Both the position numbers and the translations under genes were made by a program. From contig JAWMAR010000016.1 of NCBI GenBank assembly GCA_036785375.1, positions 8,990,001 to 9,054,000 on the forward strand: a stretch of 64,000 bases of DNA. Direction: 5' to 3'. The stretch's first letter is position 1, and the number at the start of each line of letters is the position of its first letter. The notes beneath the pieces were generated by a model. The model saw only the letters and a list, made by a program, of their open reading frames with translations. It did no database searches and had not been told where the DNA came from. Source of the DNA: Leucoraja ocellata. Taxonomy: Eukaryota. Positions 3,898 to 62,450 of the stretch are shown in pieces.

Positions 3898-4548
3898 TGT
3901 AACGGGTATAGCTTGGACCCAATAGCAGCACAGAATCAGGCAGGTATAATTGGTAATGAACCTTATAACGATACTGTAACACAGAGTAGTAACACAGGAA
4001 TGGGTACACCGTACTCACACAGAGGCTCAGGATTGAGCGAGGGTTCCGAAGAGGGGCAGGCAGGAGGCGTAGTCGGGGTAGCGGAAGATCCAGTAACCAG
4101 GAGATCCAACACACGATGCAAACAAACCAGCGAGGGACAGACGAAAGCATAGTCAAAGTCAGGCAGGAAGTCGAGGAGCCGTTGCAGGGATACACCAAAC
4201 AGCCCAGGAGAGAGGCAGAGAGAAACCAGGAGGTCGGGGACAGAAGGCTGAGGTGATATCCGGGAAGATGACAGGACGGAATGGTCAGGGGCAGGCAGGT
4301 TCGAATCTGTGTAGGCAGTCGGGAAATCGCTGGAGAGTCTTGCATGAATGCTGAGAACAATCTGGCACTGTGTGAACGGTGAGGAGAGTCTATATACCGG
4401 GTTAATAGGTGATCAGAGGCAACTGAGTGCAACAGGTGAGGAGAGTTAGGCAGATGAGAGGGGAGTGGCAGGCAAGGAGAAGGAGGGACCGGTGGAAAAG
4501 TACTGGGAGGTGAAGTGGATGAGAATGAGGAGAGGGCAGACTGTGACA
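3898..4548 (-). mobile_element. Solo LTR (Gypsy or BEL type), 651 bp
   Basis: TG...CA termini (TGTAAC...GTGACA), 5-bp TSD GGAAT at 3893-3897 and 4549-4553, and a TATA-like GGTATATAGA on the minus strand near 4390. Confidence 0.85.
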
Positions 4549-4802
4549 GGAATATTGTTTTATCAAGGCTACTACTAATGAGCAGAGCAACCTAGAACGC
4601 AAGCAAGTAGTGGAACTAAATTATTTAAATCTGCTGCTGACCAAGAATGGTGTTTGATTGCCGTAGAAGTTCTGGTTTGTTAATTTGTCACAGAACAGCA
4701 TTAGCTTTCTTTCACGGACCCCAATCTCAAACCAGTTCCTTCACGGCAATTCAAAAACTCAACCACAGGAATGTCATCACTACCTTTACTTGCACTAAAC
4801 AT

Positions 4803-5110
4803 GGGCAGCACAGGGTGATACGGTGGCACAGCTGGTAGAGCTGCTGAGTCACAGTGCCAGAGACCCAGCAGGTTCAATCCTGACCTTGGTGCTGTCTATG
4901 TGGAGTTTGCACGTTCTACCTGTGACTGCGTGGGTTTCCTGTGTGTGCTCTGGCTTCTTCTCACATCCCAAAGATGTGTGGGTTCGTAGATTAATTGGCC
5001 TCCGGAAATTGCTCCTAATGTGGAGGGCGTGGTGAAAGTGGCATAACATGGAACTAGTGTGAATGGTCAGCATGGACTTGGTGGGCTGAACGGCCTGTTT
5101 CCATCTTGAA
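4803..5110 (+). mobile_element. tRNA-derived V-SINE (HE1-like)
   Basis: A/B-box head, V-domain and tail. Confidence 0.8.
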
Positions 5111-55920: not shown

Positions 55921-56180
55921 AGGCGACAGATAGCACAATGGGCTAAGAGTTCGGCTGGCGACCGGAAGGTAGCCGGTTCAAATCCCGCTTGGAGTGCATA
56001 CTGTCGTTGTGTCCTTGGGCAAGACACTTCACCCACCTTTGCCTGTAATGGAATGGCGGCAGGCGCGGGCACACCGCGACGCCCTGTGTCTCCCTTTCAA
56101 GGGAGATGCTAAAAATGCATTTCGTTGTCTCTGTACTGTACACTGACAATGACAATAAATTGAATCATTTCATTTCATTT
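55921..56180 (+). mobile_element. Distinct tRNA-derived SINE with CORE-like body and Rex1/Babar-type tail
   Basis: B box GGTTCAAATCC; TGTGTCCTTGGGCAAGACACTTCACCC (CORE-like); tail ATTTCGTTGT...ACAATGACAATAAA followed by (CATTT)n. Confidence 0.65.
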
Positions 56181-57255
56181 TTTTTTCATTTCCCAGCTTT
56201 TACATGGTCCTTTGTCATGTTTTCACTTTTTTAACCTCTCCTTTTAACATATTAACCAGATAGCTTCACCAACAGCCTTATTACCTCGGTAACTCTGCCT
56301 CACCATATTGGACATATTCCTTTTTTCCTATCCATGCTTCTCCCATCCTTTCTGTTACTCAAAACTAACCTTTTTCTCTATTTCCCAGTTCTGAAGAGTG
56401 GGTTTTTAACATGAAACATTAATGGGTGACGTTTCAGCTCGAGACCCTTCTTCAGACAAATGTCACCTATTCCTTCTCTCCAGAGATGTTGCCTGTCCCG
56501 CTGAGTTACTCCAGCTTTTTGTGTCTATCTTCAGTTTAAACCAGCATCTGCAGTTCCTTCCTACACATGAAACATTAATACTTTATTTCTATCTGTAGAT
56601 GCTGCTTGACATGCTGAGAATTTTCAGCATTTTCTTTAGTTTAGTTTAGAGATACAGTGCGGAAACACCGAGTCCGCGCCGACCAGCAATCCCCGCACAT
56701 TAACACTATCCTACACACACAACACACTAGGGAAAATTGTTACATTTACCAAGCCAATTTTATTTCGGAGTCACGTAAGTAATTCCGTGAAGATCCCAGC
56801 CCAGTGCGCATGTGCGGCATAATCGCACAGCTGTGCAGAACGCGGCCAGCGGATACTCCTACCCCAGTGCTATTGCACTAGCCATCTCCCTTGTCGAGGG
56901 ATTGATGCAACAGCGGAGTTTGAGCTATGCCTCCTCCAATTTATAGCACACCCTTTTGCTCCCTCTTTTGAGGCTAGCTAAGGAGGCCAGGGCTGGGCTG
57001 GCTTAAACGCTGGGCAGGCGGACGAGAACAGCAGTATGCCAGGGGAGCAGGATCAGGAAGAGCTACTGGGTGTCGTGGGCCACTACATGGCTCCTCCACG
57101 CGACCATCTTCCCAACAAAGCCCTGCAGGAGCAGGCCTTTCTAGAGGCAAATCCGCAGGCAGCTGGGTCAGCAGACTCGCAGACAAGCAGCGAATTCTGA
57201 AGCTCCTAACAGAAGGGTCAAGATGTTACCGCCTTTGCTCGTTTTTCCACGGATC

Positions 57256-57386
57256 ATACTCACCTGGCAGGCGAGACGCCATGATCACCAAGGTGGTTCT
57301 CCCAGAATGAGACTTTCCCGTTGCACTACCAGGGTGCTGACGCCTAAGATATTCCCAAATTTGGGATACTCGACTGAACAATGGTG
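57256..57386 (+). ncRNA. U1 snRNA-derived sequence (about nt 1-130, 3'-truncated, Sm site degenerate) inside the DIRS element; expression unknown
   Basis: ATACTCACCTGGCAGGCGAGACGCCATGATCACCAAGGTGGTTCTCCCAG...TTGCACT...GTGCTGAC...CCCAAATTTGGGATACTCGACTG aligns without gaps to vertebrate U1. I count about 95/120 identities against recalled human U1. Confidence 0.9.
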
Positions 57387-57759
57387 CATATAGACCTGCC
57401 CGCAACCCCAAATATACGGGGCTATGCAAACCGCTGCTGCGGGAAGAGAGGCAGCTAAACCTGTGCGCCTCATGAGGGCAGGCCATGGAACGAGCAGGAC
57501 ATCGCATCCAACACCCAGCTGGCAGCACCCCTCGGCATCCACCAGCAATATCAAACAAGGACTGGTGAAAGCCCGGCGACCGCTTCACATTACCCCCAAA
57601 GTTCTTTTTAGACAGGGGCCCAGAGCGGAGCCGTGGGAAAATGCGCCACCCCACCGACAGCACCAGCATACCAGCAAACTAGGCCTTCATGAAAAAACAA
57701 TAAACATGGAGGTAGGTAGTCTGGTTCCTCCCAGTTTACACTAAATAAGGGTGTTCTAC

Positions 57760-58217
57760 TAACTGCGGGGGGGGGGCATTTACACTTGTTGATAAAGCAT
57801 GGGATGCTGTCACAAATAACTAAAATATACTCAACAGTATTAGAGGATAAAAACGAATTCAAATTGGGCATATTACCGCCAGTTCAGCAATGCGCCCAAA
57901 GGGCATTTTCTCCCTCTAAGAAAAGAGAAGTGAGAAGGTCAAGCTGAACTAGAAAGGCTCATTACTAAACGGATCATGGGAGTAAAACATGAACCATTGG
58001 AATTTGTATCGAATATATTCACCAAAACTACAAAAGATGGTGAATGTAGCATCATCATTGATCTAATATCACTAAATAAATCTGTTGAGTATATACACTT
58101 TAAGATGGAGACGGGTTTTTGTCACTGCCAGACATCTGATCTCCCAAGGATACCTATGGGGAGCATTGATATGGAAGATGCTAACTATCATTATAGGATC
58201 ATTATAGATACCTAAAA

Positions 58218-58251
<34 letters not shown>

Positions 58252-59400
58252 TTTACCTGGATAATGGATATCCCGGTTAGGGCAACCATGGGAGCATAGA
58301 GCATTCCCTATGGTCTAACCTCAGCCCTAAACTATTATAAATATTTAAAAAATGGCCATGAAAATATTAAGAAAACAAGCACAATCATGGCATATATTGG
58401 ATGATATCCTCATATTAGGGGAAACAAAGGAATTAGCTGTGGCAGCAGTTCTAGCTACGAAACAGCTCCCTAAAGCTCTGAGGTTTATCCCACGCCCAGA
58501 TAAACCAGAATTGAAGCGTTAACTACCAAGGATTATCTGGGCTTCAATAATAATTCCGTCCATATGACTGTTACTTTGCCAAGATACTTGGGTCACTATA
58601 ATCAAATCATGAATGTACCCACTGAAGCTATATCACAATTAAGGTGATGGGCAGACATATATTTGGCATAGTTTTCAGCCCTATTATCATCACCAATCCC
58701 AACTTGGTTATTAAAAACCGATGCCAGTACTTTAGGCTGGGGAGCAACTAAACTCCATATCCAGCACAGGTAACAGATGGACCAATTCACAAACATCGTT
58801 ACTACACATACCGGGCATCAACTACTTGGAATTGGTGATCGCCTATTGGGCTAAAAAGCATATGCATTTCAAATGCAGCACGTACGTATGTGGTTACGGA
58901 TTGATAATACTATGGTGGTGGCTTATATCAACCATATGGGGAGCATAATAATCATTATTGTGCAACAAATTGGTCAAACAAATCTGGCAATGGTGTGTCA
59001 AAAGACATTTTAACTATCAGCTGCCTATGTCCTAGGAAGCTAGAACACAGTGGGAGACACCATGTCACGGGGTAAAATTTATGATTACATTGAATAGATG
59101 TCAAACCCAAAATATCTGCTAAAGGTATTAAGCAGTTTGAAAGCCAGATATCAATTGGTTGCACAAGACGGAATCACCAGTAACCTATGTATGTGACTTA
59201 GGAACCAGATTAGAGGCAGCAGCGATAGATGCCTACACGCTGGAAGGGGGAATTTCTGCTTTGCCTTCCTCCCTTCTGCCTCATCAGACGGGCACTTCGC
59301 AATACAGATGGGATCTGTCTCCGAGATATTGAACGTGCCCGACCGGCCTACACAGCCATGGTTCCCAGTTCATCACGACACGGTGGGCGAGTCACCTATG
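57760..59400 (+). pseudogene. DIRS pol remnant (RT, RNase H, methyltransferase-like), frameshifted
   Basis: Peptides KDGECSIIIDLISLNKSVEYIHFKMET, MGSIDMEDANY (cf. MASIDLKDAYY), TDASTLGWG, IDNTMVVAYINHMG and PPFCLIRRAL, broken by stops, frameshifts and an A-run near 58214-58251. Confidence 0.85.
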
Positions 59401-59499
59401 GATTTCCCTAGTGGACCATGGTTGCTGACTCAACCCAGTATCAGGCACAAGCCACCCATGCCAGGGAAACATCAAACTCCTGGGTGCAGGTTTTGAATA

Positions 59500-60390
59500 G
59501 ACCTTACCAGGGACTGGGATTATCCAAAGGAACCATTACCACCATGTCGGCATCCCTGCGAACAGTCACTAAAAGCTAACATGGGTAAAATACTGCCACG
59601 ACGCAGGGACAACGAACTATTCAACCACTGACGTATTGGAGTTCCTGGAACATCTACACCATGACTAAAAGGTGAGTTACAGTGCCGTAAATACAGCATG
59701 GAGCGCCTTATCTGCTTATCTAAAACAGCATGTCAGCAGAGCATGGGATCCCATATCTCAGAGAAAGGCACCAGCCAGATCCCTCAGCTTGCTCAATCTA
59801 TGTTAAAAACGCTCATGCTTATGGCTCTAGTACACGTTCACAGAGTCCAGTCACTCCATAAGACTAGACTGGATAACATGGTGATTACCCCAGACGCATC
59901 ACGTTCATATTCTAGGTCTGGTAAAATCTAACTCGCAGGTATATGGGACTAGGCAAGGTTATGAGTTCGGCACGGACTAGTAGGGTCGAGATCGCCTGTG
60001 TTTTCCGTGCTGTAATCGTTATATGGCTATATGGACCAGGAACGCCCAATTCACTGGTGGGATTCCGGGCCTACCCACGAGAGTCCAGGTTGAGTGTGGT
60101 GACCCATCTACTACAATATATAGACACAACCCACAATCTTAGAGGGAGAGGAAAGCCTATGGGTCAACCACAGAAACCCCAAGACGGGGTACGAGCCAAA
60201 CCACTCCAAGGTGGCTCAAACAGGTACTGAAAGCTGCCGGAATAGATAATAATACATTTTAATCCCATTCCACTAGGGCAGCATTGGTATCAGCGGCTGA
60301 ACGAATGGACATCCCGGTTGACCACATTCTCAATACGGCAGAATGGTCAAGGGAACGACGTTCAGAACATTTTTTATTATAAACCGTTGA
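59500..60390 (+). pseudogene. DIRS tyrosine recombinase remnant
   Basis: LKTLMLMALVHVHRVQSLHKTRLDNM, then a SHSTRAA-like segment and SAAERMDIPVDHILNTAEWSRE, typical of the DIRS YR C-terminus; disrupted. Confidence 0.8.
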
Positions 60391-60603
60391 TAAACCTGAT
60401 TTAATTGCAGGAAGAATATTACAAACTGCAATATTAATTTAAGCTCAGGGAAGCTCTTTATGTTGTTATTGTTAACAAATACCTTTCTGTTTCTTGTGAA
60501 AGCAGATCCACTGGTTGATTACGATAACACTTCCTCCCTCAAAAACTTCGGCAGTGAGTGAAATAAAAACTGTTACACGGTTTGAAATCACAGACCTTTG
60601 AAG

Positions 60604-60716
60604 TCTTCACGGAATCACTCACGTGACTCCGAAGTAAAATAGTAAGATTAAACGAGTACTTACCAGTATGAAGTTTGATCTGTATTTTATGAGGAGTTAC
60701 GGTGAGGTATTACGTG
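60604..60716. repeat. DIRS internal complementary region (ICR)
   Basis: 60638-60716 is the exact reverse complement of 60865-60943 (79 nt). 60604-60640 is complementary to the left end 56757-56793 with 3 mismatches. Confidence 0.92.
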
Positions 60717-62450
60717 CCCGCCGCTCCCACCCTCAATATATAGATCAAACTAATAAACTGATGTCTCATGACCTTTACTATCTTACTTCAAATATTGTGT
60801 CTATCCTATGATTTCACACCGCTGCTTCGAAGTATGCCGCACATGCGCACTGCGCTGGGATCTTCACGTAATACCTCACCGTAACTCCTCATAAAATACA
60901 GATCAAACTTCATACTGGTAAGTACTCGTTTAATCTTACTATTAATCTACAAACCTGTATGGCTTTGGAGTGTGGGAGGAAACCGAAGATCTCGGAGAAA
61001 ATCTACGCAGGTCACGGGAAGAACGTACAAACTCCGTACAGACAGCACTGTGATCTGGGATCCGGCATTCGCTGTAATTCTGCATTCTGCGCCACAATTT
61101 CTGTTTTTATTATAAATCCACTTCACCATTGTAAATTAATTGTAAATCAACATAACATTTGCAATGTCAAAAAAACCTAAATCTGTCTTTTGACTACTAA
61201 ATATTAATGTAAATAAGATTTTAATTTAAATAAAGACATTCTCTAAAGAGTTAAACTGATAAGACATGTCATTTCGTTCTGATGTGGTGATTGAAGGGGA
61301 AGTCTGATCATGGTAATTTCAGGCCAAGAAAGTGAATGCAGAGAAGCTATTTGCTTTGCTGGGTTAAGGACAAATATTGGAACACGATTTTGAAAATTAT
61401 AGGTATGCCATTCAGGAGGAAAATCAGGGAGGACTTACCGATGAAAAGTAATGGGAGCCCAGGACGTGGTAATAAATGAAAGTCTTCCAGCAGCAGTGGA
61501 AAGGCAGCTATTAGCAGCAGCAGCAGCTATGGACTTTGTCAAGAGCCTCTGCCCCTCTCAATGATGCTCCCATCAGATAAAATCAGTGGAGCCTCGTGCA
61601 ATTAGAAATTAAATAGCCTGGGATATGGAAATAGTGAGCAAATAGATCAGCCTCATCGAGCTGAGAAGCAGGGCTATTTCACTGGAAAACAGGAACAATC
61701 AAAAGTAGGTTTTGCCTTATTTTCTCGCTGTTTACTTCCAATTTCTGCATTGAGTCCCACGAGTGCTCCAGAGTATGATCCACGCTGCACCAAAGCATCA
61801 CCTCAGGCTTTTCTTTGCTGCTGTTTCTAATCAGCAAACATCTGCTTTTCATCATTCGTATGTAATACCGCTTTGCTTCATGCAGCCAACCTGTGATCCC
61901 AAACTGCTTTTCGTGATTGCGCGCAGAGATGTTTTCACTTTCATTTTTAGAGCCTTTGAGTGTACTCTGTGCAGATTAAATTTCAAAGACCTCTCATGAA
62001 ACATCTACACTACCAATACCTAGCATTCATCAAGTGCCTTTTGCATTATCAAACATCCCCATGCACTCTGCGGAGTCAATATCAGCACGGCTTCTCAAAG
62101 CCGGTTATATAACAAGGTGGAATTGATCTTTTTTTAAGGTGCATTGAACACTTTGAAGGTACACCAAATCTTTGCACTGAAGTTTGGGATTGTTCTCTTA
62201 CCCTTCTAGTTTTCTCTCTCTTTTTTTTCTGCTGGGGTGCAGTGCCATAAACCAAAGTATTCACTAACAAAGGAACATACTGTAAGACTGTAATAAACTG
62301 GAGCAGGTCATTCTGCTCTGCCATTTAGTAAGATCCTGGCAATTCCAAACTTGGCCACAAAATACTTGCCCACTCTTTCCCCAAGCCCCTTGATTTCCTT
62401 AAACTTCAAGTATCTGAAATCTCTGCCTTGAATATGTTTGACTCTGCCTC

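Follow-up and report, generated by a model that had tools for sequence, protein, structure and literature searches.

Results

A U1 snRNA segment inside a DIRS element

The window, a 64,000-nucleotide stretch of contig JAWMAR010000016.1 of Leucoraja ocellata, contains a fragment of U1 snRNA embedded in a DIRS retrotransposon (Table 1). The Rfam covariance model RF00003 matches positions 57256-57387 of the plus strand with 59.3 bits (E 2.3e-13), and the segment lies on the sense strand of its host element, as the original prediction, made by eye, had proposed. It covers stem-loops 1-3, whereas stem-loop 4 is absent and the Sm site is decayed. Because of the missing stem-loop and of broken pairs, the score stays below the gathering threshold of 69.5 bits, and the segment was therefore missed when the whole window was scanned with Rfam at that threshold, which gave no matches. 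On these grounds, and because its flanks are gag, we reject a functional U1 snRNA gene at this position. The segment is 81-84% identical over 127-128 nt to 20 genomic U1 loci that were fetched for comparison. Two gene variants, distinguished by four differences in stem-loop 1, are found among U1 loci L031-L050, and the variant nearest to the window segment is that in L047-L050.

Table 1. Parts of the U1-bearing DIRS element, in window positions.
Feature	Position	Strand	Remark
Non-autonomous DIRS element, 4,187 bp, ATT at both ends, within a common repeat	56757..60943	+	Other host-repeat copies show the two flanks joined, overlapping by 3 nt
Left inverted terminal repeat	56757..56821	+	
Private 523-bp deletion of the window copy; 5' splice-site-like motif and 5' part of gag gone	56851..56852	.	
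Broken gag, portion upstream of U1	56852..57255	+	
U1 snRNA fragment, stem-loops 1-3 and decayed Sm site	57256..57387	+	Extends over nt 1-139 in early-branching copies; about 83 nt of gag lost in exchange
5' joint: U1 nt 1-11 where the gag stretch agreed at 9/11, first 5 exact	57256..57266	+	
Broken gag, portion downstream of U1, overlapping the start of the RT frame	57388..57744	+	
Broken RT / RNase H / methyltransferase frame, approximate limits	57600..59496	+	By likeness to intact relatives
Broken tyrosine recombinase frame, approximate limits	59490..60445	+	By likeness to the L234 recombinase frame
ICR	60604..60716	+	60604-60640 complementary to left end, 60638-60716 to right end
Right inverted terminal repeat and right end	60833..60943	+	

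DIRS elements insert at a shared trinucleotide, without a longer TSD. In keeping with this, ATT stands at the left end of 35 of 36 copies and at the right end of 35 of 36. The ICR of the window element is complementary to the right end at 79 of 79 nt (100%) and to the left end over 37 nt at 92%, and the two ends pair with each other as inverted repeats over 47 nt (89%). The element thus combines inverted terminal repeats with an ICR complementary to both ends, the combination given as the DIRS hallmark in PMC6681497. Frames for gag, RT/RNase H and tyrosine recombinase are all represented, broken in the U1-bearing family and open in relatives L234-L236. Pfam searches with seven fragments of the window element found no RT, RNase H or tyrosine recombinase family, and the only trace of the methyltransferase in Pfam was a faint Dam match in L099 (E 0.03). 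The repeat that hosts the DIRS element has many copies spread across the window. Separately, a tRNA-like SINE head was recognized by eye at 55921-56110.

A large non-autonomous family and its candidate helpers

A genome search with the U1 segment and its flanks returned 1,818 candidates, and all 40 of those scored span both junctions at 99-100% identity. Exact-pattern counts, all of them lower bounds, gave at least 856 matches to the full 5' junction, at least 503 to a version without stem-loop 1 (U1 nt 6-43 deleted), at least 12 to the true U1 5' end (partly contained in the 856) and at least 124 to U1-less close relatives. The comparison of 1,359 U1-bearing with 124 U1-less sister copies undercounts the latter, because they are older. 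The 856 and 503 junction matches confirm the supposition that the insert is a family feature and not a one-off.

The window copy and 18 complete siblings have a mean identity of 98.9%, and none of the 19 contains a sense frame of more than 140 codons, which agrees with the predicted non-autonomous status. The family norm is about 4,690 bp, compared with 4,187 bp in the window copy. U1 had been placed about 500 bp from the left end; this is correct for the window copy, which carries the private 523-bp deletion, but in 20 of 20 siblings the distance is 944-1031 bp (about 1,025 bp). The U1-bearing elements are thus a non-autonomous DIRS family of about 4.7 kb. Three copies of the family (L087, L094, L019) lie within or beside other DIRS copies or are internally rearranged.

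The relatives L234, L235 and L236 have open frames for gag (410-421 aa), RT (693 aa) and recombinase (325-338 aa), and Pfam recognizes RVT_1 and Phage_integrase in L234. Over 1,155 nt, a U1-family copy and the L234 locus agree at 75% (L151), and the ends of L234 are near-identical to those of the U1 family. We consider L234-L236 candidate helpers; with them, the family shows the traits of a non-autonomous one, namely many near-identical copies, no coding capacity and an intact partner with matching ends. The L099-type family was rejected as parent, being too distant (65-83% identical). A first search of the genome with an RT fragment found nothing beyond the U1 family and its subfamilies, and a genome-wide search for helpers with PF00078 was discarded, as its best matches had LINE-sized frames. 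The U1-less gag pattern occurs at 921 sites in related families.

The stem-loop-1-deleted junction is also present in contigs X15 and X18 of two runs labelled as different organisms. In two RNA runs, from libraries unsuited to small non-polyadenylated RNA, 2,471 of 12.9 million and 2,147 of 17.6 million reads fell on a sibling copy; depth over the U1 bins was 1-8, there were no piles of read starts or ends, and most reads were just 90-95% alike.

The empty site and a single origin of the gag insert

In U1-less relatives the two flanks of the insert are separated by 89-90 nt (54 in a deleted sub-branch), and in an intact relative gag runs through the site continuously in one frame, QRILKLHTAAITAFAR...RPALNPKYAGLC. 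The early copies L212, L214 and L217 have U1 nt 1-139, with the Sm site intact, and 7 nt between the same flanks. Since 89-90 nt of the empty site compare with 7 nt beside U1, about 83 nt of gag were replaced, in line with the earlier suggestion that U1 stands in for part of gag. Against the empty site the capture has neither a TSD nor a poly(A) or A-tail, and a deletion instead; the absence of both had been noted from the window alone. The observation that U1 stops at about the Sm site is valid for the window copy, but not for early-branching copies, where it extends up to nt 139 past an intact Sm site.

At the 5' joint, the gag stretch that was lost matches U1 nt 1-11 at 9 of 11 positions, the first five exactly (chance 1.3e-4 per site). 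This match is the best or tied-best in nine of nine U1-less elements, a level reached at only 1-4 of about 4,400-4,850 positions. The 3' joint falls within a U1 G-run, next to a loosely similar G-run of gag.

Early U1 copies share with the U1-less sisters L202, L205 and L210 many indels of 1-2 nt and two large deletions in RT, indicating that the recipient element was already dead before U1 was captured. With the U1 columns removed, a tree of 24 of the 61 sequences unites the gag-site U1 copies in a single clade (UFBoot 100) that sits within the dead, U1-less sisters. A second tree of 59 sequences, without L203 and with the branches and rates of L208, L225, L228 and L232 disregarded on account of an unrelated flank, recovered the same clade at support 0.94. 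The trees point to a single origin of the gag-site insert inside a dead lineage.

A second capture in the same lineage

Near-intact U1 3' parts gave 72 genomic matches at 71 places; 30 and a further 15 were read, and the rest were taken as U1 genes, most by their place in the Rfam search. Four of the matches are the gag capture. Another (L268/L269; G000:C310, U1 near 2744914, minus strand) has U1 nt 2-141, 99.3% identical, in sense orientation in the RT gene of a DIRS element. About 15 nt of the target are lost, there is neither a TSD nor an A-tail, and the gag site is empty. L269 keeps G17, which is C or T in the gag capture, and two more U1 nucleotides at the 3' side, and it clusters with L202, one of the dead sisters (UFBoot 96). 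Its element was read without the left end, and it is a single copy among the near-intact U1 matches. From these features we conclude that L269 is a second, independent capture in the same DIRS lineage. Both captures descend from the L047-type U1 variant, and both 3' ends (nt 139 and 141) lie inside the 5' arm of stem-loop 4 (nt 138-143).

Because the gag capture was the starting point, L269 alone counts as a test of recurrence. A random insertion is unlikely to have struck the same small lineage (less than 1% by rough estimate; 10-20% for any DIRS element), and DIRS elements of this lineage likely capture U1 repeatedly.

The other U1 retrocopies among the first 30 loci read are marked by A-tails, a TSD or a 3' partner of LINE/SINE type, and their U1 sequence continues further 3', to about nt 146-157. 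Among them, L241 and L246 have A-rich tails, L246 with a TSD as well, and L262 joins U1 nt 1-150 to a sequence that we take to be CR1-like. In L239, L240, L248, L250, L266 and L270 the U1-derived stretch is followed by what is presumably a SINE-like head; L250 and L270 are alike and may represent a small U1-SINE chimeric group. In a further set (L255-L257, L263-L265, L271-L276, L278-L283), U1 3' parts with normal 3' flanks are preceded by similar AT-rich sequence in place of the 5' end, possibly a Dada-like transposon targeting U1 genes.

A 5' splice-site-like motif near the left end

A motif resembling a 5' splice site, complementary to the U1 5' end at 9-11 of 11 positions, is located at element nt 125-139 in 20 of 22 scanned elements and also in L099 (5478-5490); shuffled sequences gave 0.43 such matches per whole element. 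Its position just upstream of gag is conserved across DIRS families, and its carriers include L233-L236, L195-L199, L204 and L059. The motif is deleted from the window copy, and L202 falls below the cut. In the non-autonomous lineage, the motif and the complement that follows it make up a palindrome, and the right end contains another motif of this kind. In the one intact family tested, a search for spliced genomic copies at the motif found none, and the two matches lacking GT were both point changes.

Discussion

How U1 entered the element

The reading that we prefer, at a probability of roughly 65%, is that U1 was captured in a dead gag gene by template switching of a DIRS RT onto U1 RNA and back, and then likely persisted as a passenger. 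In this scheme, the RT of a helper, copying the RNA of the defective element from 3' to 5', would leave it for U1 RNA present in the same complex, entering at the base of stem-loop 4 (nt 139). From there it would copy U1 to its 5' end, where the new cDNA end could pair with the gag stretch resembling U1 nt 1-11, returning the RT to the element RNA with about 83 nt skipped. As the product retained its ends and ICR, it could be copied in trans by helper-made RT and recombinase, and would have been amplified in this way. The switch, like the inclusion of U1 in a DIRS complex, is deduced from junction footprints and recurrence, and junctions by themselves do not identify the enzyme. At the second capture the 5' homology is small, about 2 nt, and needs two flanking changes to be allowed.

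LINE insertions, too, can show 5' microhomology and target deletion. A LINE enzyme might accordingly have placed a 3'-truncated "tailless" U1 retrocopy, with a target-site deletion, into a genomic DIRS master that was then amplified as a DIRS element. LINE-type U1 retrocopies do occur in this genome (the A-tailed L241 and L246, the CR1-like L262 and five loci with a SINE-like head, L239, L240, L248, L250 and L266), and 3'-truncated snRNA pseudogenes are common in mammals (PMC4476161). By the same source, however, 70-100% of truncated copies bear TSDs, and neither DIRS insert has one. The other U1 retrocopies read here end further 3' than the two captures, and both events, in sense orientation, fell in a single lineage of a few hundred copies, by estimate well under 0.1% of the genome. 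With neither a TSD nor poly(A), and with deletions of about 83 and about 15 nt at the empty sites, we did not class the inserts as LINE-made tailless or processed snRNA pseudogenes, and regard this origin as unlikely.

A possible reason why U1 was captured lies in the splice-site-like motif, which may tether U1 to DIRS RNA. We tentatively entertain the further possibility that this motif, located some 135 nt inside the left end, lets DIRS elements bring U1 selectively into their replication complexes, where the RT would time and again switch to U1 at the base of stem-loop 4 and then return.

Decay of the insert

DIRS replication is known mostly from sequence models. In the accepted DIRS model, the ICR templates the element ends at each round. 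The perfect match between ICR and right terminus, taken in the original prediction as a yardstick for U1 divergence, therefore does not serve as one.

Over the first 122 nt, early copies have 1-2 differences from the U1 gene, and late copies 14-19. Measured from the early copy L227, U1 in late copies differs at 12-16% (20% in L081) and the dead body at 6.5-9%. Four late copies have 8-9 of 36 U1 pairs broken, with at most one double change, in a pair register that for stem-loops 2 and 3 is partly our assumption, and covariation in the U1 of element copies nowhere rose above shuffles. One pair of stem 1 is lost in all 11 aligned copies; every late copy examined shows a changed U1A loop, broken closing pairs of that loop, or both; and late copies are altered in the Sm site and in the end that pairs with 5' splice sites.

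This decay bears on the proposal that U1 is functional cargo, with stem-loop 1 binding U1-70K (or stem-loop 2 U1A) and so aiding survival, export or packaging of the element RNA. Among full-length copies, 48 distinct ones show no change in the 70K loop, and in the full-length branch nt 1-52 are changed at 1-2 of 52 sites, compared with 11-15 of 71-72 in nt 53-124 (p 0.002-0.013, for a split chosen post hoc); U1-bearing branches also far outnumber their U1-less sisters. However, change in nt 1-52 is not significantly lower than in the flanks (p 0.08-0.31, same post hoc split), the near-intact early copies are the rarest, with 12 matches, and the 503 exact matches of the branch lacking nt 6-43, nested in the youngest part of the tree, have lost the entire 70K loop. 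Given these copies, the altered U1A loop and pairs and the lost Sm site, the U1 piece is neither required nor conserved as a whole. With U1 diverging at least as fast as the dead body, the earlier idea of cargo recruiting U1-70K or U1A is not supported, and we rate any such function as very improbable.

The opposite effect, in which intact U1 burdens the element RNA through Sm or U1A binding or through pairing with the element's own splice-site motifs, so that lineages breaking it are favoured, receives little credence from us. In six late copies U1 does belong to the most divergent 0.3-5% of 139-nt windows, and outside CpG its excess is significant in three of six comparisons (p 0.015-0.039; 0.06-0.16 in the others), although the six share branches and the p values are uncorrected. 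Change in nt 53-124 is about 20%, versus 8.5% in the flanks (p 0.002-0.096), by pairwise tests; a column-wise value of 29% for the downstream flank seems inflated by unrelated sequence in some copies and was set aside, as were the p values derived from it. Copies of intact type number 12, against 1,359 decayed. Yet neighbouring windows of dead gag also reach 13-15%, and most U1 changes lie on one long branch. A burden would in any case concern the fate of U1 and not its origin, and is compatible with the capture step of template switching. The piece may have a small effect on the element in either direction, and is likely a decaying passenger.

Finally, deletion and insertion with microhomology and no TSD would also fit repair of a DNA break. 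In this reading a master copy would have been mended with U1 DNA or cDNA by a microhomology-mediated route involving no retrotransposition step, and the genome does contain a DIRS copy close to a true U1 gene, at a distance of about 590 bp (L099). Yet there were two events in one lineage, and both inserts start at the RNA 5' end (nt 1-2), with none of the sequence that flanks the gene upstream, and end at the base of stem-loop 4, limits that an RNA template predicts. We attach the least probability to this reading. In L099 that DIRS copy, a distant one (5345 onward), starts upstream of the U1 gene (4590-4753) on the opposite strand.

Relation to known systems

No DIRS element carrying U1 was found in the literature searched, and the family is apparently unreported there; Repbase, Dfam, subscription journals and supplements may already contain an annotated consensus. 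A close likeness is SINEU of crocodilians (Kojima 2015, PMC4494074), a U1-derived repeat family in a non-autonomous retroelement without an internal promoter, for which template switching was proposed as the source of U1. There, U1 or U2 forms the 5' head of a LINE-mobilised SINE and was added repeatedly; in the DIRS family U1 is internal, replaces coding sequence of a tyrosine-recombinase element and is dispensable. Membership in SINEU was rejected, as U1 lies between DIRS termini, about 1,025 bp from the left end.

Cassandra, Helenus and Ajax (TRIMp3; Kojima 2024, PMC10886601) are likewise non-autonomous, contain a small-RNA-derived segment and are moved by autonomous partners. Their LTRs contain 5S rRNA or tRNA sequences serving as Pol III promoters, whereas the U1 of the DIRS family has no internal promoter, sits in gag and is unconserved. 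The terms "snRNA" and "DIRS" are both absent from the main text of that paper. TRIMp3 membership, defined by a Pol III promoter in LTRs, a PBS and a PPT, was rejected, since the DIRS family has no LTRs and its U1, in gag, is partly deleted in a large branch.

The snRNA/LINE chimeras and 3'-truncated snRNA pseudogenes of PMC4476161 resemble our case in being RNA-templated, in their 3' truncation and in template switching by a retroelement RT. They are mostly single inserts with TSDs, made by one switch and chiefly involving U6, and that study saw no U1/L1 switch chimeras; the DIRS family differs in its two switches (out and, as we infer, back), in a product that replicates and in the lack of a TSD. 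U1 is also found, at substoichiometric levels, among the RNAs that retroviruses package (PMC4752605), and a few snRNA copies may have arisen together with LTR insertions (Giles et al. 2004, as cited in PMC4476161 and PMC4752605). In the literature searched nothing of the kind appears for DIRS elements, and these retroviral and LTR cases gave rise to no family like that of the DIRS-borne U1, with its more than 1,300 copies. Dada DNA transposons (PMC8869645) and Keno/Tx1 (PMC4494074) also bring transposon and snRNA sequence side by side, but by inserting into snRNA genes, while the DIRS family contains U1 and carries it along when it moves.

Significance

With at least 1,359 DIRS-borne U1 fragments and at least 42 Rfam-scored U1 loci, the fragments are in about thirty-fold excess and can confuse snRNA annotation and read mapping. 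A small-RNA-bearing retroelement family that likely arose by hitch-hiking, without benefit, offers a null for SINEU and TRIMp3. The value of the finding is in the recurrence and the clean junction record, and a new functional system is not implied. Within a single DIRS lineage, U1 was captured twice, independently and on the same strand; the two events, with their empty sites and the graded decay, constitute a footprint of host RNA capture that we attribute to a DIRS enzyme. Should selective recruitment of U1 prove true, DIRS elements would be retrovirus-like transducers of host RNA, and the junctions would document, for the first time from genomic sequence, the contents of a DIRS complex.
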